Part shown: piece after piece, positions 9,398-36,232 of the stretch
Layout of the letters: every line of letters starts with the position of its first letter
How positions within the stretch are numbered: position 1 is the first letter of the stretch
Source: an uncultured Collinsella sp.
GTDB lineage: Bacteria > Actinomycetota > Coriobacteriia > Coriobacteriales > Coriobacteriaceae
NCBI GenBank assembly: GCA_959606065.1
Contig: CAUHHV010000002.1
Span: 56,575 to 120,574, forward strand
DNA: 64,000 nt
Direction: 5' to 3'
Notes under the pieces: model-generated
Seen by the model: the letters and a program-made list of their open reading frames with translations, nothing else
What the model was told of the DNA's origin: nothing
Database searches by the model: none
Position numbers and translations under genes: made by a program

Positions 9398-9440
9398 ATA
9401 AATCAAAAGGGCCCCGGCCGAGAATTCGACCGGGGCCCTT
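9398..9440. terminator. GC-rich hairpin (AAGGGCCCCGG..CCGGGGCCCTT) between convergent mntH and rubredoxin; followed by a T-rich tract on the minus strand
   Basis: Stem-loop read directly. On the minus strand it is followed by TTTTGATTTAT, about 40 nt past the rubredoxin stop. Confidence 0.5.
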
Positions 9441-9479
9441 GGACAGAGCTATGTTCGGCTTTCGCCGTGTGCCTACGAG

Positions 9480-9623
9480 TTACTCCTCGACGAGCTCAAA
9501 CTCATCGGGGCCGACGCCGCAGACCGGGCATACGTAATCCTCGGGCAGCTCGGGCGTGTCGACCTCAACCTCGTAACCGCAAACGGTGCACACAAACTTA
9601 TACGTCTTCTTCTCCTCAGCCAT
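9480..9623 (-). CDS. rd: rubredoxin (47 aa; below the 60-aa cutoff of the ORF track)
   Basis: Hand translation gives [47 protein letters not shown]. It has two CxxCG motifs and a TAA stop. Confidence 0.8.
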
Positions 9624-9712
9624 GATGTTCTCCTCTCGAACGCGACTGGTGATGTACTTCGTTTATTAGTATAGATTCTCAATAATATAATGCAAGTATT
9701 TTTAGAACATTT

Positions 9713-10216
9713 CTAGCCTTGATACGATGAAGCCTTGGGCGGCGTCTTGCCCTTCAAGACCTTGTGATAGTAGTCATAGGTCAGCGGGGCCTCGCCGCTC
9801 AAGCGCTCGGCGTCCTCCACCTCGCCGATAAAGAGCAGGTGCGTGCCCACGTCCACGGTATCAATCAGACGGCAGCTAAACAGCGCCGCCGCGTGCTCGG
9901 GCACATAGGGCATGCCCAGAGCGGTCTCGTGGGTCTCGTACTTGGCAAACTTGTCGTAATCGCTGCTGGTGCGGAAGCCAAAGTTGCCGATATAGAGCAT
10001 GTCGGCGGTCTGGTCAATCACGGTCAGCGCAAAGGCCTTAGCCGATGCGATTACGCCGGACGTGACATTTTCCTTGTTCACGGCAATCGAGATGCGCGGC
10101 GGGGCGGATGTCACCTGCACTGCTGTGTTGATAACGCAGCCGGCACGCAGCCCGTCTGCCACGGCGCTCACCACGTACAGGCCACTCGGCATGGTAAAGA
10201 ACGCAGTTTTGTCCAT
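9713..10216 (-). CDS. flavin reductase-like domain protein (NADH:flavin oxidoreductase family)
   Basis: Start placed at MDKTAFFTMPSGLYVV after a GGAG-like ribosome-binding site. The in-frame upstream extension reads through a repeat element and is probably not translated. Confidence 0.7.
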   Translation of the reverse strand: MDKTAFFTMPSGLYVVSAVADGLRAGCVINTAVQVTSAPPRISIAVNKENVTSGVIASAKAFALTVIDQTADMLYIGNFGFRTSSDYDKFAKYETHETALGMPYVPEHAAALFSCRLIDTVDVGTHLLFIGEVEDAERLSGEAPLTYDYYHKVLKGKTPPKASSYQG

Positions 10217-11894: not shown

Positions 11895-11970
11895 TGGTAG
11901 CCCGTACCAGATTCGAACTGGTGATCTCCGCCTTGAGAGGGCGGCGTCCTAAACCGCTAGACGAACGGGC
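11895..11970 (-). tRNA. tRNA-Glu (anticodon CTC)
   Basis: Hand-folded cloverleaf: acceptor GCCCGT, anticodon stem CCGCC/GGCGG around loop CTCTCAA, T-loop GTTCGAATC, CCA encoded. Confidence 0.75.
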
Positions 11971-11988
11971 CATATGTAGCAAATGCAA

Positions 11989-12062
11989 TGGCTGGGATGG
12001 AGGGAGTCGAACCCCCATTGACGGAACCAGAATCCGCTGTCCTGCCATTAGACGACATCCCA
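11989..12062 (-). tRNA. tRNA-Gln (anticodon CTG)
   Basis: Hand-folded: acceptor TGGGATG/CATCCCA, anticodon loop TTCTGGT, T-loop GGTTCGACTCC, CCA encoded. Confidence 0.7.

Positions 12063-23762: not shown

Positions 23763-23763
<1 letters not shown>
22615..23763 (-). CDS. prfB: peptide chain release factor 2
   Basis: The SPF and GGQ (GPGGQGVNTTDSAVR) motifs are present. Start at MAEALEV overlaps the secA stop (TAATG). The reading frame is continuous. Confidence 0.9.
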
Positions 23764-26591
<2,828 letters not shown>

Positions 26592-26877: not shown

Positions 26878-27303
26878 TTACTCAGCAGCCTCGGTGGTCT
26901 CGGCCTCGGCAGCGGCCTCCTCGACGGGAGCCTCTGCAGGAGCCTCGGCGGCCTGCTTGGCAGCCTCCTCGGCGAACTTAGCGGCACGCTTAGCCTTCTC
27001 GGCAGCCTTAGCCTCAGCGGCGGCCTTGCGAGCGGCCTCGGCCTCAGCAGCCTTGGCGGCCTTGGCAGCCTTGGCCTCCTCGGCCTTCTTGAGCTGGGCG
27101 GCAGCGGCGCCACCGAACTTGTCGGCGAAGCGCTGGACGCGTCCACCGGTGTCGACGAACTTCTGCTGGCCGGTGTAGAACGGGTGGCACTCGTTGCAAA
27201 GCTCGACCTTCATCTCGGACACGGTAGCGTGCGTCTTGAAGGTGTTGCCGCAGGAGCACGTCACCGTGCACTCGACATACTGGGGATGGATACCCTGCTT
27301 CAT
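26878..27303 (-). CDS. rpmE: 50S ribosomal protein L31 (type A, zinc ribbon) with an Ala/Lys/Glu-rich C-terminal extension of about 70 aa
   Basis: [48 protein letters not shown] followed by low-complexity (A/K/E)n sequence. Confidence 0.85.
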
Positions 27304-27489
27304 GGTAGGACTCCTTATTAGTCAGGCGCTGGTTACCGATCAGCGCATAAGGCGTCTTGGTTTCCGACCAAGACAACAAACTCGACTATGGTACCACGGC
27401 GCCGCGTGTCCCACAAAAGGTTCACGGTCTTTTCGGCACAACACGAGCTGGACCTTAAATATCAACTTCATCCGAACACTCCCCCACAT

Positions 27490-29298
27490 TCATCTCTCGT
27501 ATGTATCGAGGTATTCCTGCTTGAGCGTCTGCGAGGACGACTTGATCTTTTCCACGAGCGTGCCGGCTTCGATGAAGTAGAACGAGTCGGTGAGGTCTGC
27601 CAGGTCGTCGAGTAGATGGCTTGAGATGAGCACGCTTCGTCCCCGCGCCACCTCGCTGCGCATCGCGTCGCAAGAGGTTTTCCGCTTTCCCGGATCGAGG
27701 CCGTTCAGCGGTTCATCGAGGATAAGGTACGGGCAATCGGTCGATATCGCCATGGCAAGCTTTACCTGCTGCTTCATTCCTGTCGAGAGTTTACGGGTCG
27801 GCTTGTCGAGATATGGGGAGATTCCGAGGGAGCTGCAGAGCGAGTCGATGTCGGCGGCCGATTTCCACGCCTCCCTAACGAAAGAGAGGTGCTCGATGGC
27901 CGATAGCGTGGGGTAGAGATCCGTGCCGCCCGAAGAGCTCAGGTAGACGAGTTCTGCAAATTCGGCTGATCGACGTTGGCAGATTCCGTCTGCCACCAGG
28001 CTTCCCGAGCGGATGCGGGTGGGAAATTGGCCCGACAGCGCTTCAAGAAGGGTGGTTTTCCCCGAGCCGTTGGGAGCAACGAGGCCCGCCGCCGTTCCCG
28101 GGCTCAGGAAAAGCGATCCGATTGAAAGTATCGTCGTGCTCCCGTATCCCACGCTCGCGTCTAGAAGCTCGAGCCCATGGTGCTTTTTAGCGGGTCCAGC
28201 CTGTTTGGGCGAACGTGCCGCAACGGCGCCGACCGCAAAAAGGACCGCGACGTATGCCAGGGCCACGGCAAGCATCGATGCGCTGCCTGAACCGGAGCCA
28301 ATGAATTCTGTCGGGAAGCATCCTACGTAGCCCGTGGCCTCGATAGGCGAGAACACGGCCAGCGGCAGGAGCCCGAGCACGGCATTATGCTCCAGCGCCG
28401 AATCGGACAGCAACGGGAATGCCGGGGCCGCGACAAGCAGCGCTGAGGTAAGGGGGCCCGCGAAGACGCGCCTCGTTGCGGTCGATAGGACGGCGGAGCA
28501 AACGGATATCAAGGTTCCGCCCGCAAGCAGCGCGAGAAGCAGGGTCGTGAAGACGTTTCCCGCGGTCGTGGTGGCAAGCGCGCCGTCATGGAAGAAGGCG
28601 ATCGGGTACCCAATTTGCCCGAAGCCGTTTAGGACCAAGGCGTAAATGCCCCCGGGTGCGAGGCCGGCGAGGAGCATCGCGGTCCCCGCGACGATTATCG
28701 AAAACACGATCTGGATAAGGCGCCGGAATTTGGGCGCGGGCGCCTTTGCCGCCAGGGTCCCGGGCCTTGTGGCGCCGAGCACGAGTATCGACGAGAGAAG
28801 GAAGGGGATGAAGGGAAGGAAAGACGGCGCCGTGGCAATGGCGTAAGGCAGGAAGGAAAGGAATGGCAGGTCGTTTGCGGAGGCCGGGATATCCGTGATG
28901 CCGGAGCTGCTCAGGGCACGGCAATATGCGAGCGCTGCGTCATTGGTCTCTTGGTCTCCCACGATGGACCCGGATTGGAAGCCTTCGCCCATGAGCGCGT
29001 AGTAGCTCTCGGCAGAATCGAGAAAGGCGGCGTCGGTTTGAGCGGCAAGGGCGGCGTTCGCGTATCTTGCAAGCTCCGCGTCATTTTGCTGCTCTGGAGA
29101 TAGGTCTGTGCCGCTGGCCTGGGGCGCGCGCGTATTGAATGCGTCGACAAAGCCCTGCATGCCCTGCTTCATAAAGAAGGGCCCGTAGATGGGTGAATTG
29201 AACGCAATGGGGACGGAAAAGGCTGCAGCGAGAACGAGCGTACAAATCCATGTGGCCTTGTCTCTTAGGATCAGTTTGAGAAGAAGTCGACAGTACAT
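27490..29298 (-). CDS. fused ABC transporter: ABC-2-like permease domain (N) plus ATP-binding domain (C)
   Basis: About 380 aa of multi-TM N-terminal sequence, then Walker A GLVAPNGSGKTT, signature LSTGMKQQ and Walker B LILDEPLNGLD. Confidence 0.75.
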   Translation of the reverse strand: MYCRLLLKLILRDKATWICTLVLAAAFSVPIAFNSPIYGPFFMKQGMQGFVDAFNTRAPQASGTDLSPEQQNDAELARYANAALAAQTDAAFLDSAESYYALMGEGFQSGSIVGDQETNDAALAYCRALSSSGITDIPASANDLPFLSFLPYAIATAPSFLPFIPFLLSSILVLGATRPGTLAAKAPAPKFRRLIQIVFSIIVAGTAMLLAGLAPGGIYALVLNGFGQIGYPIAFFHDGALATTTAGNVFTTLLLALLAGGTLISVCSAVLSTATRRVFAGPLTSALLVAAPAFPLLSDSALEHNAVLGLLPLAVFSPIEATGYVGCFPTEFIGSGSGSASMLAVALAYVAVLFAVGAVAARSPKQAGPAKKHHGLELLDASVGYGSTTILSIGSLFLSPGTAAGLVAPNGSGKTTLLEALSGQFPTRIRSGSLVADGICQRRSAEFAELVYLSSSGGTDLYPTLSAIEHLSFVREAWKSAADIDSLCSSLGISPYLDKPTRKLSTGMKQQVKLAMAISTDCPYLILDEPLNGLDPGKRKTSCDAMRSEVARGRSVLISSHLLDDLADLTDSFYFIEAGTLVEKIKSSSQTLKQEYLDTYER

Positions 29299-29451
29299 TC
29301 AGAAGCACCTACGTTCCTCAAAGAATCGTTAGATTAAAAGTAACAGACCGGATGAAGATACGTGCGACGGGGGCGAGGCGAATGGCTGAGCGGTATCGAT
29401 ATGCGGGTTTAACGGTATTATATTGACCACATAGATTTTTAACTTGCATTT

Positions 29452-30201
29452 CTACCCGCCCTTTTCGTAGAGTCGCCGATACGTGCTTAGCGCACCCTCG
29501 GCGCGTCCGGCAGGCTTTGCGAAATGGGATCCAGGAGACTTCGGCGCAGCATCATCTTGCGGAATGCTTCTAATGAGCCTCCCATCCTTCAAAAACAGAA
29601 TCTCATCGCACAGCCTATCGACCGAATCCAAGATGTGGGATGACATGATGATGCACGTACCAGAATCGGCCAGCTTCCTGAGAATCTCGGAATGCAAGTC
29701 CACCCTGCTGGGGTCGAGCGCGTTCATGGGCTCATCTAATAGAAGGTACCGCGTGCCCGTCGCATACGCAATCGCCAGGGTAAGCTGCTGCTTCATGCCC
29801 TGGCTCAGAGTGCGGATCCTCATCTTCGCGAACTCGCCTATCTGCGTTTGTTCCACTATCTCTTCGATATCGCGAGCATGCGGCCACATATCGCAAACCA
29901 TCTTGAGGTGATCTTCCGCACGCAATCCGGGATACAGCAGCGTCCCCTCACCAGGTGCATAGAAGATCATAGAACGGACCTCTCTCGCACCCGTACCCTG
30001 CACCTCATCCAGAACGATGCTCCCGTCCACGCGAGGACCCGGCAAACCCGCCATCGCACGCAGCAACGTCGTCTTTCCATGCCCGTTCGGAGCGACGAGA
30101 CCGTAGACCGTACCCGGGGCAAACTCAGCGTTCACCGAATCTACGAGCACCTTCTTTCCATAAGAGATCGTCAGCGTTTGAAGGTCAATCATCGAGATCA
30201 T
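29452..30201 (-). CDS. ABC transporter ATP-binding protein
   Basis: Walker A GLVAPNGHGKTT, signature LSQGMKQQ and Walker B LLLDEPMNALD. Overlaps the upstream permease by 4 nt. Confidence 0.85.
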   Translation of the reverse strand: MISMIDLQTLTISYGKKVLVDSVNAEFAPGTVYGLVAPNGHGKTTLLRAMAGLPGPRVDGSIVLDEVQGTGAREVRSMIFYAPGEGTLLYPGLRAEDHLKMVCDMWPHARDIEEIVEQTQIGEFAKMRIRTLSQGMKQQLTLAIAYATGTRYLLLDEPMNALDPSRVDLHSEILRKLADSGTCIIMSSHILDSVDRLCDEILFLKDGRLIRSIPQDDAAPKSPGSHFAKPAGRAEGALSTYRRLYEKGG

Positions 30202-32438
30202 CCCCTTTCGATCTTTGGAACACTCAGGCGCACCATCAACGGAGATACGGCGCCCAAGACCACCAGCAGAGCGCCCGATGCGCCGACGACCTCTCCAAAA
30301 GGCATCGCGTTCGTCCCTCGCCCAAGGAACCCAATCGTCCCCACCTGGGAAGCGGGATCAAACGAGGCGAATGGAGCCAGCAGCGCGACGCCCATGCCCA
30401 CGCTTTCAACATGAGCGCTCAACGAACCCAACACCAAGAGAACCGCGCAAACCATTCCGGTGACAACGGGGTTGCGGCTAATCGCTGCTGTCAACGCAGC
30501 GACGACGGAAATCACGCCGTATGCCATGACCAGCAACGGAATACTGCACAACACCGCCTCCCCCACCATGGACGTTGTCGAAGCTCCCGCCCGAATGAGA
30601 GCGACGGGATACTCCGATCCACCCGCACCGTTCTTAATCACGGACACAACGACAGCGGGAACCATCGACACCAAAAGCAGCACCAAGCCAAGCAGGAGAG
30701 CCAGCGCAACAGCCGTCAGAAAACGCACATGCGCTGTTGCGGGGATCTGGAGAACCAGAAGGGAACGACACTGCAGGTGGGTGCACGCGAGCGATGTGAC
30801 AACCACGGGCAACAGCAAAAATAAGGAGGGAAGCGCTGCCTGGAGATACGAAAGGAGGATTAATGGGGGCATCTTCGTACTTAACTCGTAAACCTTGGGG
30901 TCCGGCAAGCTCGCGATCGACTCAAGCAGAAGGGCGCGCGCCTCCGCACGAGAAGGAGTCTCCGGCTCGATTCCGATCGATTGCAGGAGAGTCGCATCTG
31001 CCGCGCCCAGCTCACCTCGAGCGCGCTCGTACGTCGCAAGGCTTCGAAACCCCTCCGCAGGCATAGGCGCGTACACGAAACCCGAAAGAGCATCCCGCAT
31101 GTCTTCCAGGGCCGCTTTGCCCTCGACGTCCATATTCGCAGCGTTCTGCTCTAGATACCGATCTATTGAACGGAGCTCCCCATCCCTATACCGAACAGCG
31201 GAAACGTTATCAGCGTCAGGAAACATCTCGACCAGAGCCGGGGCCAGCATCGTCGTCGACATTGCAATCGCGCATACGGCGAGGGTAGGAGAACGCAGGA
31301 GCAGTTTCCCCATCGTTCTTACGTATGCAACGGCGGAGGCACAAGCGCTCGAACGAGTTGCCGTTCTCGATGCAGTGAAGGAACCTCTCTCAAGACAAAT
31401 CGGGGATATCGGGCACGCGCAGCCGCTCTTTCCAGCAACGCAAAGCAGGCTAATTGCCAGCACCTCGATCCCGATTGCGCATACGAGGGCAATCGCGCCA
31501 CGCTCGAAGCAAAGTCCAGGCAGATTCACTATCTGCGTTGTCGGGTACGGGCTATAGGCGCCGACGGTCAACTCAGTGTTCGCATACGTAAGGGGATTCA
31601 ACAGGGCGAACTCACGTAAAGCGATGGATCTTCCGTAATACCCGGGAACCATCGTCACCCCCATCAGGGCACATACGAACACGATTCCAAGCGTAGGGTT
31701 ATTGGCAATCTTCACGGCAAGGTGAACGACAAGCGAGATGAACGCTGCCACCAAGAATTGCAAGATGGCCGTCTGCGCGAACACCAGCCAAGCCGGTTTG
31801 ATAACCGGAGTCGCATATTGAATGTAGCCTATCGGATAGAACGGCGAGCCCGGGCCATTCTTCACAAGCGCGGCGATTATCCCTGGAAGATTGATGGCGA
31901 GGACGGCAAGCATTGCAAAAACACTCGCCCATACGCTCGATGCAACAAGTCTACCCAGCTCGCCCATCGGTGCCTGGATGATGAGCTTTTCACGTTTGTT
32001 AAGACGCGCGGCAAGGAACGAGACGGCAACGGCCGTTGCGACCCATAGCAAGTACTCCTTCGATCCGTCATGATAGGTGTACTCTCCATCCGATGTCTGC
32101 AGAAACGGAAGTAGGGGAGAGAGCGGTGCCAAGATAAGACGTCCCGCGGCAAGAGGGTACAGAAGCGCGGGCATGCTTGATGAAGAGGTACAGACACCGT
32201 CCTCCCCCGCATTCACAAGCGCATCCGCATAGGATGCTGACAATTCCTGCTCAACACGGGTTATTCCCGACTCGAGGTATTCGACCCGTCCGTCGATGCC
32301 AGCCGCGCTCCTGAAGACGGGCAGAGCACAAAGAACCATCAACGCAACAACGACAACACAGAGCGACCTGGAGGAGAGAAGCGACCTAAAGATCGCCTTC
32401 GAGATTTTGAGCATATTCATCGCCAACCTTAACCTCAT
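30198..32438 (-). CDS. large polytopic ABC-2-like permease with an internally duplicated domain (746 aa)
   Basis: Two TM-rich halves each carry a KNGxG..YP motif (KNGPGSPFYPIGY and KNGAGGSEYPVAL). The same motif recurs as NGFGQIGYPIAF in the 27490..29298 protein. Confidence 0.65.
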   Translation of the reverse strand: MRLRLAMNMLKISKAIFRSLLSSRSLCVVVVALMVLCALPVFRSAAGIDGRVEYLESGITRVEQELSASYADALVNAGEDGVCTSSSSMPALLYPLAAGRLILAPLSPLLPFLQTSDGEYTYHDGSKEYLLWVATAVAVSFLAARLNKREKLIIQAPMGELGRLVASSVWASVFAMLAVLAINLPGIIAALVKNGPGSPFYPIGYIQYATPVIKPAWLVFAQTAILQFLVAAFISLVVHLAVKIANNPTLGIVFVCALMGVTMVPGYYGRSIALREFALLNPLTYANTELTVGAYSPYPTTQIVNLPGLCFERGAIALVCAIGIEVLAISLLCVAGKSGCACPISPICLERGSFTASRTATRSSACASAVAYVRTMGKLLLRSPTLAVCAIAMSTTMLAPALVEMFPDADNVSAVRYRDGELRSIDRYLEQNAANMDVEGKAALEDMRDALSGFVYAPMPAEGFRSLATYERARGELGAADATLLQSIGIEPETPSRAEARALLLESIASLPDPKVYELSTKMPPLILLSYLQAALPSLFLLLPVVVTSLACTHLQCRSLLVLQIPATAHVRFLTAVALALLLGLVLLLVSMVPAVVVSVIKNGAGGSEYPVALIRAGASTTSMVGEAVLCSIPLLVMAYGVISVVAALTAAISRNPVVTGMVCAVLLVLGSLSAHVESVGMGVALLAPFASFDPASQVGTIGFLGRGTNAMPFGEVVGASGALLVVLGAVSPLMVRLSVPKIERG

Positions 32439-32555
32439 CCAGTCGGAATAGAGGGGCCGAACAAAATGCTCGGCCCTTATTACTTGCCGGCAAAGTCAAT
32501 TTAACATAAACTGTTAAAAAGTAACCTGAGTTTATTAAATTCTTCGGAGGTTATT

Positions 32556-33068
32556 ATGAGTTCCGACAATCGCACTCCCCGGCTTCATTCCTTCCGCATC
32601 GCATGTGCGATAGCCTCTGCGACCCTTTGCGCCACCGCCATCGCACAAGTGGCGTTCTCCTTAAAGCCAGCAATCGAAGTGCTCGACAACCCTGTAATTG
32701 CAGACTCCCCCGCGTATCCAGCCCTTGCGATCTCGACATTGCTCCCTGCCGTCATCGGTATCGCTACGACCATCCTCAGCGCCGTTCTCGTGTGGACGAT
32801 CAAGAGCGGAGACCCCTTCAAGAAAGGGTCTGCGACATGCTTGAAGGTGCTCGGCATTCTCTTCGTTGTTCAAGCTGCCACCAGCCTCTACGCCGGCTCA
32901 CTCAAAACCTCCGTTTCGATGTTTGGCGGCGAGGGGGCCGTCGGCGCCCAAGAGATCGCTTCATCATTCGATTGGACCTCTCTGGTTCTCGGCATCGTCC
33001 TGTTCATGCTTTCCCAGCTCTTCTTGTACGCCCGAGAGCTGTACCTCGACTCCGACGAGATTGCGTAA
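32556..33068 (+). CDS. DUF2975-like small membrane protein (4 TM)
   Basis: 170 aa with four hydrophobic segments. Immediately upstream of a YozG-like HTH gene, the usual pairing for this family. Confidence 0.55.
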   Translation: MSSDNRTPRLHSFRIACAIASATLCATAIAQVAFSLKPAIEVLDNPVIADSPAYPALAISTLLPAVIGIATTILSAVLVWTIKSGDPFKKGSATCLKVLGILFVVQAATSLYAGSLKTSVSMFGGEGAVGAQEIASSFDWTSLVLGIVLFMLSQLFLYARELYLDSDEIA

Positions 33069-33077
33069 GGAAACGCC

Positions 33078-33329
33078 ATGCCCGTAATTGTTCGCCTCGA
33101 CAAGATCATGGCCGAGCGAAAGATTTCCTCGAACGAACTTGCCGAAAGGATTGGAACCACGCCCGTGAACCTGTCCCGTATTAAAAAAGGGCATATTCGC
33201 GGCATTCGCTTCAACACACTCGAGCAGCTATGCCTCGCCCTTCGTTGCCAACCCGGAGACCTTCTCGAAGTCATGAGCGAAGAGGATGCCCGAAAGGAGT
33301 TCGGACTCGATTGGTCCGCCGAGGATTAG
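33078..33329 (+). CDS. XRE-family (YozG-like) helix-turn-helix transcriptional regulator
   Basis: The 83-aa protein contains the HTH KISSNELAERIGTTPVNLSRIKKG. Confidence 0.7.
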   Translation: MPVIVRLDKIMAERKISSNELAERIGTTPVNLSRIKKGHIRGIRFNTLEQLCLALRCQPGDLLEVMSEEDARKEFGLDWSAED

Positions 33330-34055
33330 AGGGCGGTCGTACTCGCCCTGCACACGGGGATGCGAATCGGCGAGGTCTGCGGCCTTCGGTGGTGCGATGT
33401 GGATTTCGAGACGGGCCTGATCTCGATCAGACACTCGGTGGCGTACGCGAAGGGAATGGGTTCGTTCATCAAGGACACCAAGACCCATGACGCCAGGGGT
33501 ATCCCCATCGACCCGGTCGGCCTACTCCCCTTCCTGAAGGAGACCCACGAGATCGACTGCGGAAAGCTGCGCTTGCGCGGCCTTACCGGGGCGGTCGAGA
33601 TCGGGGACTGCTACATCCTGTCGGAGCCGGGCGCGACCTTCGCGACGACAAGCTATATCCGCAGGGCGTTCAAGACGTTCTCGGAGACCAACGGCCTCAT
33701 GGGCACCAACGATGAGCTGATCACGTTCCACGGCCTTCGCCACACGTTCGCAACGCAGTGGATCCGCCAAGGCGGCGATATCAAGGCGCTCCAATCGATC
33801 CTCGGCCACAAGGACGCCATGGCGACGCTCAACGTCTACGCCGACATCGAGCCCATCTCCAAAATCCATAACATGCTGCGCGCCACGCCGTGCCTTTGGC
33901 GCGGGCACCTCGGGCCGAGGGTCGATCCGGGTCCCATGTTCCAACAGAGGATCCAGGAGTCCATCGAGACGCTCCAGGCGTTCGGCTACGGCATCACCGA
34001 GCCGGACGACCGAAATATCGCCATACGCGACGTGAAGACGAACAGTTGGCTCTAG
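33330..34055 (+). pseudogene. N-terminally truncated tyrosine recombinase/integrase (catalytic domain only)
   Basis: Begins at box I (LALHTGMRIGEVCGLRWCDVD) and includes HGLRHTFAT (HxxR) and the LNVYAD Tyr region. The core-binding domain is missing. It starts in frame directly after the TAG stop of the HTH gene. Confidence 0.7.
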
Positions 34056-34451
34056 CTCACCGAGTACGCGGCAGTGCTGGGCCCATCCCAACTGAGGTCA
34101 CGGTGGTCCGATAGGGGCGCCGCCCGCGGCATGCGCCGCGGAGCGGTATCCCCTACCGAAGGGCGGGGATGCCCTCCGCTTCCAGTTCGGAATCAGCCGT
34201 CGGAGGCGTTCGGCTGACTGCGGGAACGGCCTGTCCGCTCAATGTGTTCGGCTGAGATCGGAAATCAACCCAACACGAGCCGGACACGCGCCAGACGGCT
34301 CTTCCCCGTGCGGCCTTCCCCCTTACGCTCATGTTGCAGGCATGTAACGCCGCAGCGAGCGCGCCTTTTTTGCGCCAGACAGGTACAATGATGAACACTG
34401 TACCGTAGCGGAGCGCCCCGCGCGCGCCGCAATCACGCGAAAGGGTTTCCC

Positions 34452-34739
34452 ATGGCCGAGATCTCGTCCTCCCGTATCGTCATCACCGTCCTTGGCAAGA
34501 ACCGCCCCGGCATCGTCGCCGGCGTCACCCGCGTTCTGGGCGAGGCCAACGTCGACATCCGCGACATCACGCAGTCCATTATCGAGGACATCTTCACCAT
34601 GACCATGCTGGCCGACACCGCCGAGTCCAAGCTCGACTTTGCCGAGCTGCAGAAGGCCCTGGCCGAGGCCGGCGAGCTTTCGGGCGTCAACGTGTCCATC
34701 CAGCGCGAGGACGTCTTTAACTTTATGTACCGCCTGTAG
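34452..34739 (+). CDS. ACT-domain protein (UPF0237-like)
   Basis: 95 aa with an ACT fold (IVITVLGKNRPGIVAGVTRVLGEANVDI). Confidence 0.65.
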   Translation: MAEISSSRIVITVLGKNRPGIVAGVTRVLGEANVDIRDITQSIIEDIFTMTMLADTAESKLDFAELQKALAEAGELSGVNVSIQREDVFNFMYRL

Positions 34740-34813
34740 CGAACAGGCTGCGTGGAGACGGCCCAACGTGCGCCCAGGCGCAACGTCACCACATGGCCCG
34801 GAGAGGAGCGCAC

Positions 34814-36232
34814 ATGGCCTACGACGCCAAGAAAATCTACTACCGCTTCGACGACCACCTGAGCCGTCTGGTCTTGGATTACGAAGCAAGCCGCCAGATT
34901 TCGTCTGAGAGCGAAAACCTCTACCACGGCCTGCCGACCGACCCTTATGACGAGGGCCTGTTTGTTGAGCACAATGTCAAGCGCGGCCTGCGCAATGCCG
35001 ACGGCTCGGGCGTGGTCGCGGGCCTCACTCGCATCTCGGATGTGCACGGCTACAACAAGGTCGACGGAAAGGTCGTGCCCGATCAGGGCAAGCTCACGCT
35101 TCGCGGCTACAGCATCGAGGATCTGGTCAACAATGCCCAGGCCGAGAATCGCTACGGCTACGAGGAAGTCGCCTATCTGCTTATCACGGGTTCGCTACCC
35201 AACAAGGAAGAGCTCGACGGCTTTTGCGAGCGCCTGGGCGCCTTTAGACATCTGAGCGACGAGTACGTCAAAGAGTTCCCTATGACCACGGTGTCGTCGA
35301 GCATCATGAACGTGCTCCAGCGCGCCGTGCTGCTGCTCTACGCCTTCGATGCCGAACCAGACGTGATCACGCCCGAGCACGAAATCGACGTCGCCATTTC
35401 CATGCTCGCACGTCTCCCGCGCATCGCCGCCTTCGCACACATGGCCTCGATCGCCAAGCTTCGCGGCTCCGAGGTTCACGTGCCGCACCCCACGCCCGGT
35501 CTCTCCACCGCCGAGACCATCCTACAGGTCCTGCGCGGCGGCATGGCATTCACCCGCGATGAGGCGATGCTGCTCGACGTTATGCTCATGCTGCATGCCG
35601 AGCACGGCGGCGGCAACAACTCCACCTTCGCCTGCCGCGTGCTGTCCTCTTCGGCAACCGACCCGTATTCCGCTTACGCCGCGGCTATCGGCTCGCTCAA
35701 GGGCCCGCGCCACGGCGGTGCCAATGCCAAGGTCGTGTCTATGCACGAGGACATCCGCGCGCATGTCTCCAACTGGGAGGACGAGGACGAGGTTGCAGCC
35801 TACCTGGGCAAGATTCTCGACAAGCAGGCCTTCGACGGCACGGGTCTCATCTACGGTATGGGCCACGCCGTCTACACGCTGAGCGACCCGCGTGCCGAGG
35901 TGTGCCGCCGTTACGCGCGCTCACTGGCAGCCAAGAAGGACTTGGGCGAAGAGTTCGCACTCATCGAGCGCATCGAGCGCCTGGCACCGCAGGTGATGCG
36001 CGACCACGGCATGACCAAGCCCATCTGCGCCAACATCGACCTGTACACAGGCTTTATCTACAAGATGCTCGGCGTGCCCGAAACGCTCTTTACGCCGCTA
36101 TTCGCCGTCGCCCGCATGGCCGGCTGGTCGGCACACCGCATGGAAGAGCTCTTCTGCGCGCACCGTATCATCCGCCCCGCCTATCGTCCGGTGATCGAGC
36201 CGCTGGAGTACAAGCCGCTCGCCGACCGCTAG
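34814..36232 (+). CDS. gltA: citrate synthase
   Basis: Catalytic-region motifs are present, including GYGHAVY-type GMGHAVY and the HGGANA region. Start set at MAYDAKKIYYRF after a GGAGAGGAG ribosome-binding site. Confidence 0.85.
   Translation: MAYDAKKIYYRFDDHLSRLVLDYEASRQISSESENLYHGLPTDPYDEGLFVEHNVKRGLRNADGSGVVAGLTRISDVHGYNKVDGKVVPDQGKLTLRGYSIEDLVNNAQAENRYGYEEVAYLLITGSLPNKEELDGFCERLGAFRHLSDEYVKEFPMTTVSSSIMNVLQRAVLLLYAFDAEPDVITPEHEIDVAISMLARLPRIAAFAHMASIAKLRGSEVHVPHPTPGLSTAETILQVLRGGMAFTRDEAMLLDVMLMLHAEHGGGNNSTFACRVLSSSATDPYSAYAAAIGSLKGPRHGGANAKVVSMHEDIRAHVSNWEDEDEVAAYLGKILDKQAFDGTGLIYGMGHAVYTLSDPRAEVCRRYARSLAAKKDLGEEFALIERIERLAPQVMRDHGMTKPICANIDLYTGFIYKMLGVPETLFTPLFAVARMAGWSAHRMEELFCAHRIIRPAYRPVIEPLEYKPLADR

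Follow-up and report, generated by a model that had tools for sequence, protein, structure and literature searches.

We find that positions 27454-34270 of a 64,000-nt window of Collinsella DNA (contig CAUHHV010000002.1; by the window we mean the whole stretch analysed) are probably, with a chance that we put at about three in four, the remnant of a transposon bounded by the ends of an IS30-family insertion sequence (IS), now without its transposase and with a mosaic interior to which a piece of a tyrosine integrase gene was joined by deletion. A sequence-only reading had earlier taken this region for an acquired block, its right edge marked by a decaying integrase that is fused in frame behind a helix-turn-helix (HTH) regulator gene, with the scar of an attachment (att) site beyond. 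Comparison with relatives bears out the acquisition and the deletion and assigns the boundaries to a different mobile element. The window belongs to the Collinsella aerofaciens group: relatives of its citrate synthase with 99-100% identity are all Collinsella, and an L31-Coriobacteria leader lies upstream of rpmE. Comparisons were made with 80 related Collinsella loci collected by tblastn, with carrier counts that differ per test (55 to 66). The block and its surroundings comprise the following features, by position, strand and identity.

23763-26591, minus strand: secA.
26878-27303, minus strand: rpmE.
27439-27453: left copy of the target-site duplication, 15 bp, CAACACGAGCTGGAC.
27454-27494, plus strand: first 41 bp of an IS30-family IS, the left inverted repeat, cut within its hairpin.
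About 27487-29437: extent of the ABC602 module; the left IS end runs into ABC602 through the string CCCACATTCATCTCTCGTATG.
27490-29298, minus strand: ABC602, a membrane domain fused to an ABC ATPase (ABC_tran at residues 395-532).
29452-30201, minus strand: ABC249, an ABC ATPase; its stop overlaps the start of the TM746 gene.
30198-32438, minus strand: TM746, a large membrane protein with no family match.
32439-32555: AT-rich divergent regulatory spacer, 39% GC.
32556-33068, plus strand: DUF2975 / YoaS-like small membrane protein (Pfam DUF2975, 22.1 bits, under the gathering score of 27).
33078-33329, plus strand: YozG-like Cro/C1 HTH regulator, 83 aa, complete (HTH_26, 75 bits, residues 6-65).
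33328-33329, plus strand: deletion junction, within the TAG.
33330-34113, plus strand: 3′ fragment of a tyrosine integrase gene (int′), catalytic domain only, a pseudogene.
34114-34204, plus strand: DNA that natively follows the integrase gene where the element is of the tRNA-Pro type (homologous to the L128 group through 34204); it meets the right IS end through the string CAGCCGTCGGAGGCGTTCGGCTGA.
34205-34270, plus strand: last 66 bp of the IS30-family IS, the right inverted repeat region, holding both copies of GTTCGGCTGA.
34271-34285: right copy of the target-site duplication, CAACACGAGCCGGAC; the native rpmE-ACT spacer resumes from 34271.
34452-34739, plus strand: ACT-domain gene, 95 aa.
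34793-36232, plus strand: citrate synthase.

First, both ends of the block align with the ends of an intact IS. Searching plasmid records brought us to a complete replicon of C. aerofaciens (TSDC17.2-1.1, locus L154) with a 1,636-bp element, the two ends of which match window positions 27453-27494 and 34196-34271. This element encodes a protein annotated as an IS30-family transposase (NCBIfam transpos_IS30, 104.6 bits versus a cutoff of 80), is flanked by a 13-14-bp duplication, CCCAGAGAGTCCC(C), and has 27-bp terminal repeats that agree at 18 of 27 positions. The left 41 bp of the block are 86% identical to its intact left end (L154 10439-10479), and the right end at 34205-34270 is 91-96% identical to the intact right ends in L154 (12001-12074) and L123, the latter a second intact copy with an IS30 transposase, and to a rearranged copy in L100. 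On other contigs the left terminus and the right ~70 bp each adjoin at least five different sequences, yet the outer limit of each stays at the same base (on the right, ...GAAATCAACC); the type of left IS end seen in the window recurs in 12 other loci. No IS30 transposase is present anywhere in the 64-kb window.

Directly abutting both IS termini is a 15-bp direct repeat, CAACACGAGC(T/C)GGAC, whose copies at 27439-27453 and 34271-34285 are identical at 14 of 15 positions. Such a match has a chance of ~4e-8 at one fixed pair of positions, and a repeat of this kind alone is expected ~1.5 times by chance in 8.5 kb; it carries meaning because it abuts the IS termini. Judged by these alignments, the block ends on both sides in inverted repeats of the IS30 family, with a target duplication of 15 bp beyond them. 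The sequence-only reading had taken the repeated GTTCGGCTGA as a sign of an att scar, and both copies (34208-34217 and 34246-34255) instead belong to the last 66 bp of the IS30-family element. Its suggestion to look for direct repeats near 27380 and in 34056-34451 was fruitful in that the 15-bp repeat is there, but the repeats found are an IS end and a target duplication, not att sites. We also considered an integron-like cassette site at the ...ATCAACC boundary and dropped it, that boundary being the IS end.

Two further IS30-family copies, at L114 18014-19624 and L100 8431-10038, have had their central 0.9 kb replaced by a fragment of the IS21 gene istB on the opposite strand (IstB_IS21, E = 9e-59), with both IS30 ends kept and the total length almost unchanged.

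Second, the block is an insertion polymorphism at a single site. In about 18 of the 80 loci, secA-rpmE directly adjoins ACT-citrate synthase, as expected if the block was acquired, and most of the remaining loci hold the whole block with an identical HTH/integrase junction. Homology between the flanks of filled and empty sites stops at about 27432-27453 and resumes at 34271-34330, and all 20 long contexts that were read, together with 56 carriers, have the block at the rpmE-ACT locus. The placement between rpmE and citrate synthase given earlier was right on the left; on the right the immediate neighbour is the ACT gene, with citrate synthase after it. Profile searches of the block proteins agree with the content described before: two ABC units and the DUF2975/HTH pair, with no housekeeping genes. 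The compositional deviation proposed for an acquired block is seen in the cargo, where GC at third codon positions (GC3) is 0.63-0.72 versus 0.80-0.92 in core genes, but hardly in the block as a whole, whose GC of 0.581 versus 0.611 falls only at the 7th percentile of same-size windows. The int′ fragment has a host-like GC3 of 0.87, unlike the cargo.

Diversity among carriers tells of a recent spread. In a sliding window, nucleotide diversity (pi) falls to 0.004-0.02 over 29.5-34.2 kb from ~0.045 in the flanks, a 5-10 times lower level, and synonymous diversity is 0.005-0.013 from ABC249 to int′ and 0.045-0.063 in rpmE and ACT. ABC602, unlike the remainder of the block, is core-like (synonymous diversity 0.072, pi 0.02-0.05). 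The flanks are about as diverse within carriers as between carriers and non-carriers, so the young part of the block spread across lineages that had already diverged, most simply by homologous recombination between them. Were the block ancestral to the group and deleted wherever it is missing, carriers and non-carriers would likewise be intermixed at the flanks with equal flank diversity, and all carriers would share one site, as they do. We hold that history to be highly improbable nonetheless: IS termini and a target duplication mark an insertion, diversity within the block lies far under that of its flanks, the GC3 of the cargo is atypical, and no remnant is left in non-carriers except in L046.

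Around the insertion point (equivalent to 27433-27453 and 34271-34330), ~60 bp are hypervariable in the non-carriers L008, L028/L064 and L046, with at least three haplotypes, one of them longer by 45 bp, and the flank haplotype of the carriers is matched by no sampled empty site. Tandem repeats resembling the 15-bp repeat in these naive sites were rejected as candidates; the similarity is weak and the spacer hypervariable there.

Third, the integrase does not own these boundaries. Its intact relatives, which by their sequence context integrate at tRNA-Pro(GGG), adjoin 79-116-bp copies of a tRNA 3′ end, and in L093 a full tRNA-Pro(GGG) stands at the far end of the element. Scans for tRNAs and Rfam families in the window, L114, L119 and L128 detected no tRNA, tRNA fragment or known RNA at the block ends, and homology to the integrase element ends at 34204, in an illegitimate junction with the IS end. 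With no tRNA-Pro at the locus and homology stopping there, the integrase fragment is a passenger and not the agent of insertion. A scan of IMG/VR with the N-terminal domain of the integrase and a search of phage DNA with the block both returned nothing.

The sequence-only reading, that the block is a decayed integrative element with its own integrase at the right edge and an attR scar in 34056-34451, has some attractions, since 150-215 bp separate the integrase fragment from the right boundary, the block, an indel, has direct repeats on both sides, and in 17 carriers a 70-bp repeat flanks it that is reduced to one copy in L046, much like attL, attR and attB. We nevertheless consider it improbable. 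An IS30-family element with its own transposase has that 70-bp repeat as its right end; the tRNA-Pro and tRNA 3′ repeats used by the intact relatives are missing here; homology to the integrase element breaks off at the IS-end junction; and the GC3 of int′ differs from that of the cargo. What had been read as an att scar in 34056-34451 thus holds the IS30-family right end and a target duplication, with no tRNA-derived repeat. Within that stretch, 34056-34113 is still integrase gene, past a TAG and a frameshift, and 34205-34270 is the IS end. The AT-rich spacer at 32439-32555, also read as a scar, is the divergent regulatory region of the DUF2975/HTH operon, with a conserved palindrome.

How an integrase piece came to follow the HTH gene inside the IS30-bounded block can be traced in detail. 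As first noticed, the catalytic domain begins at the codon after the HTH stop (TAG, 33327-33329) and in the same frame, the translation of 33078-34058 reading ...DWSAED*RAVVLALHTGMRIGE.... The piece at 33330-34055 matches Phage_integrase (PF00589) with 80.3 bits over profile positions 28-168 of 172, starting ~10 codons ahead of the catalytic Arg I (MRIGE, 33360-33374), and DNA homology to three intact integrase genes runs from 33328/33329, within the TAG, to 34108-34113. The relatives closest in a protein search (P0052, P0053, P0062 and P0018) keep their N-terminal halves, with ...MMSDSTFR directly before RAVVLALHTGMRIGE. The N-terminal part is indeed lost from the window: homology starts at residue 236/237 of 496, and the ~235 residues before it are absent in every upstream frame. 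An intact relative aligns to Tn1549 Int from residue 136 onwards, and judged by this the missing part corresponds to the arm-binding and core-binding domains. All of the catalytic residues (R, HxxR, H and Y) are kept, and MRIGE, HGLRH, LGHKD and NVYAD align to motifs of Tn1549 Int; a TAG at 34053-34055 stands where relatives have Tyr and is followed by a 1-bp frameshift. The regulator gene is complete, as its relatives in unrelated contexts are 80-88 aa long and have the same ...MSEEDxxxEFGL-acidic tail.

One metagenome contig, L119, has the arrangement that a deletion would start from. It carries the same block at 96-98.5% DNA identity with a 100% identical HTH protein, whose gene ends in GAT TAG followed by GGGGCGCGAATCC (around the junction, GAT TAG|GGGGCGCGAA). 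After that stop comes a ~0.97-kb spacer, which runs from unique DNA (0.8 kb) through an incomplete tRNA 3′-end copy to a short stretch before the integrase start, and then a full integrase of 496 aa. The window reads GAT TAG|AGGGCGGTCG (GAT TAG AGG GCG GTC) where intact integrases read TTC AGG AGG GCG GTC, so that the window, L119 and the intact integrases can be aligned on a junction microhomology, AG(R)GGGCG; the other internal junctions of the block likewise show short microhomology. The window is thus the L119-type arrangement minus about 1.7 kb, and the deletion postulated earlier has visible breakpoints. On the transposon reading this one event at AG(R)GGGCG would have removed the spacer, the partial tRNA-Pro copy and the arm- and core-binding domains. 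Because the L119 HTH gene has the same stop codon before unrelated downstream DNA, the TAG at 33327-33329 is, by this comparison, the native stop of the HTH gene, and the frame it shares with the integrase is most simply a coincidence, one chance in three. The closest intact integrase alleles are those of the L128 group (90% protein identity), with homology through 34204.

Upstream of its partial tRNA-Pro copy and intact integrase, L119 has short direct repeats at 9420-9840, GGGGATTCAC three times and AATCACGACGTTAACAAA twice, which may serve the tRNA-Pro element family as arm-type binding sites. A candidate for the same locus with an intact integrase, L103 (OCHJ01002646.1, 1-9256), was left out of the evidence. 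It is a mosaic with a full-length integrase that is P0053-like in its 5′ part and in its 3′ part matches the window at 100% from 33704 onwards, set between a left flank that is the core flank of the tRNA-Pro locus and a right flank, with ACT and citrate synthase, that is the window's own. It is either a chimeric assembly at shared integrase sequence or the product of rearrangement or homologous recombination between an intact integrase and the remnant.

Since its joining, int′ varies as a neutral sequence would. Its variable sites are spread evenly over the three codon positions (15/17/18), in contrast to those of the HTH gene (2/0/7), ACT (6/2/27) and citrate synthase (8/4/85), and its pairwise dN/dS (ratio of nonsynonymous to synonymous change) is about 0.56. 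Further deletions have removed 33481-33808 in L021 and L026 and 33336-33953 in L054, and frameshift, deletion and nonsense variants also occur among public proteins and genomes. This pattern shows a fragment in neutral decay, apparently an untranslated or useless relic. The deletion junction and the TAG of the HTH gene are the same in 55 of 55 carriers, and in 47 of them the surroundings of the TAG are identical too.

A working product of the HTH-TAG-integrase arrangement, by readthrough or reinitiation or as a domesticated catalytic-domain protein, seems to us scarcely credible. It would make sense of the common frame, of the retained catalytic residues, of an int′ open reading frame (ORF) that is intact in 61 of 66 carriers, and of the abundance of the exact 231-aa ORF in public assemblies (26,778 indexed blocks). 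Yet the stop is native and no sense codon replaces it in any of the 55 carriers, the codon positions vary alike, inactivating changes have arisen independently, the core-binding domain is gone, and the first ATG (33360) has GGGG immediately adjacent rather than a spaced Shine-Dalgarno sequence; high ORF integrity is in any case expected at a pi of ~0.005, and the ORF of TM746, intact in 50 of 64, is not separated from int′ by such counts. The readthrough fusion that had been suggested for a proteomic check thus finds no support.

The rest of the IS30-bounded block is a mosaic of modules with separate distributions. The ABC602 module is 96-97% identical on two ~30-kb C. aerofaciens plasmids, NZ_CP084005.1 and NZ_OY725718.1, and elsewhere it is arranged differently, close to integrase elements and IS30 ends. 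Together the divergent pairs ABC249-TM746 and DUF2975-HTH make up a conserved cassette of four genes, of which L090 has a relative with the same pair of ATPase and 735-aa protein and no ABC602. The ATPases best resemble lantibiotic-protection, NodI and DrrA types, all under the family cutoffs (at best galliderm_ABC, 124 versus 310); only the generic ABC_tran was reached, short of an ABC-2/DrrA-type exporter, and TM746, presumed to be the permease partner of ABC249, has no family match in Pfam or NCBIfam. Residues 2-360 of ABC602 share 26% identity with residues 372-732 of TM746, its C-terminal half, and the ATPase of ABC602 shares 37% with ABC249; by these alignments ABC602 looks like a fused paralogue of the ABC249/TM746 pair. 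The TM746 gene is frameshifted or has a nonsense codon in 8 of 58 carriers (L029, L041, L051, L066, L069, L077, L158 and L163), and its variable sites are distributed 68/46/77 by codon position; together these suggest relaxed or diversifying selection on the membrane subunit. DUF2975 is intact in all 65 of 65 carriers.

The two plus-strand genes have the organization of a YoaS-YozG operon, with a DUF2975-like gene, then a YozG-type HTH gene, and an AT-rich inverted repeat ahead of both; in a 2026 preprint, such repeats in front of YoaS(DUF2975)-YozG operons are described as likely operators (bioRxiv 10.64898/2026.09.15.751765). In the window this is the palindrome TTAACATAAACTGTTAA at 32501-32517 (TTAACA-N5-TGTTAA), in whose place the distant relative L090 has TTAACATATAATGTTAA. 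From its sequence and position, the palindrome is likely the operator of the HTH protein, which would repress its own operon, and probably the exporter too, from this site in the AT-rich spacer. Scans of 32380-32620 and 34040-34460 for promoter and terminator consensus sequences gave no matches.

Many relatives, unlike the window, also carry one or other of two unrelated 417-bp modules (L001 2268-2690; L003 7270-7686, corresponding to window 32478/32479; 13579-14018 of L153, the plasmid NZ_CP084005.1), each encoding a protein of ~115-120 aa with a hydrophobic, signal-peptide-like N-terminus. One lies exactly at the IS right end beside ABC602 and is 99.3% identical on the Collinsella plasmid NZ_CP084005.1; the other lies between TM746 and DUF2975.

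These data suggest the following history for the block as a transposon remnant. A single insertion into the rpmE-ACT spacer of an ancestor of the C. aerofaciens group would have duplicated 14-15 bp of target. Its interior is a mosaic of four pieces, namely the plasmid-shared ABC602 module, the four-gene cassette, the 0.88-kb 3′ piece of the integrase and the IS ends. The element may have started as a composite, IS30-cargo-IS30, similar to Tn6330, and been trimmed later by different internal deletions. In L046, where only a 142-bp IS fragment is left at the site, the cargo would have been lost through recombination between repeats.

Several observations weigh against this history. No full IS30-cargo-IS30 composite was found, and no sampled empty site holds the exact pre-insertion haplotype with a single CAACACGAGCYGGAC. 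In 17 of the 29 carriers with a visible left junction, the left end is a 142-bp 3′ fragment of the IS and not the left inverted repeat, and their left copy of the target repeat (CGACACGAATCTGAC) differs at 4 of 15 positions, for which a simple model offers no explanation. In these 17 the block lies between direct 70-bp repeats (equivalent to 34201-34270), two fragments of the right IS end in the same orientation, and a 417-bp small-gene module with 99% identity to plasmid DNA is often present. The arrangement preceding the integrase deletion is known from L119 only; with an integrase allele that shares no more than 83% DNA identity with the fragment in the window, L119 is a cousin of the ancestor rather than the direct ancestor. 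Finally, low divergence in the block limits the power of the neutrality test on int′, and variation in TM746 and DUF2975 is also near-uniform across codon positions.

A related history does without the composite: a single IS30-family copy arrived first, and the cargo later took the place of its transposase gene, either by recombination with DNA of a plasmid or element or by an insertion of IS30 beside a resident inverted repeat. The solo 142-bp IS remnant of L046 at the same site, the independent histories of the cargo modules, and the L114 and L100 copies, in which IS interiors do get swapped, all fit it. We regard it as doubtful, as it needs several independent illegitimate events, each falling exactly between the IS ends, though there is no direct evidence either way. 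Because the 6.8-kb block keeps both complete IS30-type terminal repeats, it could even still move, if intact IS copies at other places in Collinsella genomes were to act on it in trans; it would then be a mobile insertion cassette (MIC) of very large size, with an ABC/YoaS-YozG module as its load. This is very unlikely, and less likely again is a catalytic-only integrase, made by reinitiation or readthrough, that acts with the HTH protein.

The surroundings offer a few observations of their own. The L31-Coriobacteria ribosomal leader (27311-27346, minus strand; 36 bits versus a gathering score of 33) precedes rpmE, whose product of 141 aa has an Ala/Glu/Lys-rich C-terminal tail of ~75 aa that is encoded by imperfect DNA repeats (26881-27084). 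The only tRNAs of the window, tRNA-Glu(CTC) and tRNA-Gln(CTG), stand next to each other at 11895-12062 on the minus strand and are unrelated to the block. A few kilobases to the right of the block, GCA_964261755.1 (L156/L165) has IS110-family and IS21-family (istA/istB) insertions 3′ of a HAD hydrolase gene (window equivalent ~37200), which shows that insertion-sequence traffic is active around the locus.

The locus is a decayed, IS30-bounded mosaic with an integrase pseudogene, instructive for annotation and biologically ordinary, with no new mechanism. Its lesson is that the true limits of an island may be those of another mobile element, here an IS30-family IS, even where an integrase lies at the edge, the integrase being a relic carried along as a passenger; and it teaches this with every junction mapped to the base, a pre-deletion relative, and empty, solo-remnant and filled alleles all within one species complex. 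In annotation, we advise calling the int′ ORF a pseudogene, labelling both block termini as ends of an IS and marking the AT-rich spacer as operator DNA. Such annotation touches many genomes: the exact HTH sequence is found in about 70,000 indexed assembly blocks, and the block is very common in human-gut Collinsella.

Among known systems, the block can be compared first to Tn6330 (ISApl1-mcr-1-ISApl1), an IS30-family composite transposon of a type that loses its IS copies. In both, passenger genes lie between IS30-family inverted repeats; the transposase copies have been lost, and the cargo stays fixed at a single site. Unlike in Tn6330, the target duplication is 14-15 bp rather than 2-3, the cargo is an ABC/YoaS-YozG set with an integrase fragment rather than a resistance gene, and no full composite was found. 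MICs are passenger cassettes with IS ends and no transposase, and the block resembles them in having both complete terminal repeats (41 bp and 66 bp) around cargo that includes no transposase; unlike them, it shows no sign of having moved, since the 56 carriers and the 20 long contexts all have it at one locus.

Long duplications have a precedent in IS1630 of Mycoplasma fermentans, an IS30-type element whose target duplications are reported to be long and variable (Calcutt et al. 1999, PMC94219, cited in PMC7648426). IS1630 shares with the Collinsella IS an IS30-type transposase and unusually long duplications, and the L154 copy sits in a palindrome (GGGGAC...GTCCCC), as the targets of IS1630 do; the two come from different phyla, however, and the window target is no obvious palindrome. 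For the integrase, the best solved match of an intact relative is to Tn1549/Tn916-type integrases (PDB 6EN0, 6EMY and 6EMZ; E = 7e-20 over residues 136-408), with aligned catalytic motifs, but the window copy has the catalytic domain only (from residue 236/237), and the intact Collinsella relatives target tRNA-Pro rather than AT-rich sites. The DUF2975-HTH pair, finally, agrees with the YoaS-YozG operons (bioRxiv 10.64898/2026.09.15.751765) in its genes, their order and the AT-rich inverted repeat upstream, and differs from them in being divergently coupled to an ABC exporter and in a DUF2975 match under the Pfam threshold.

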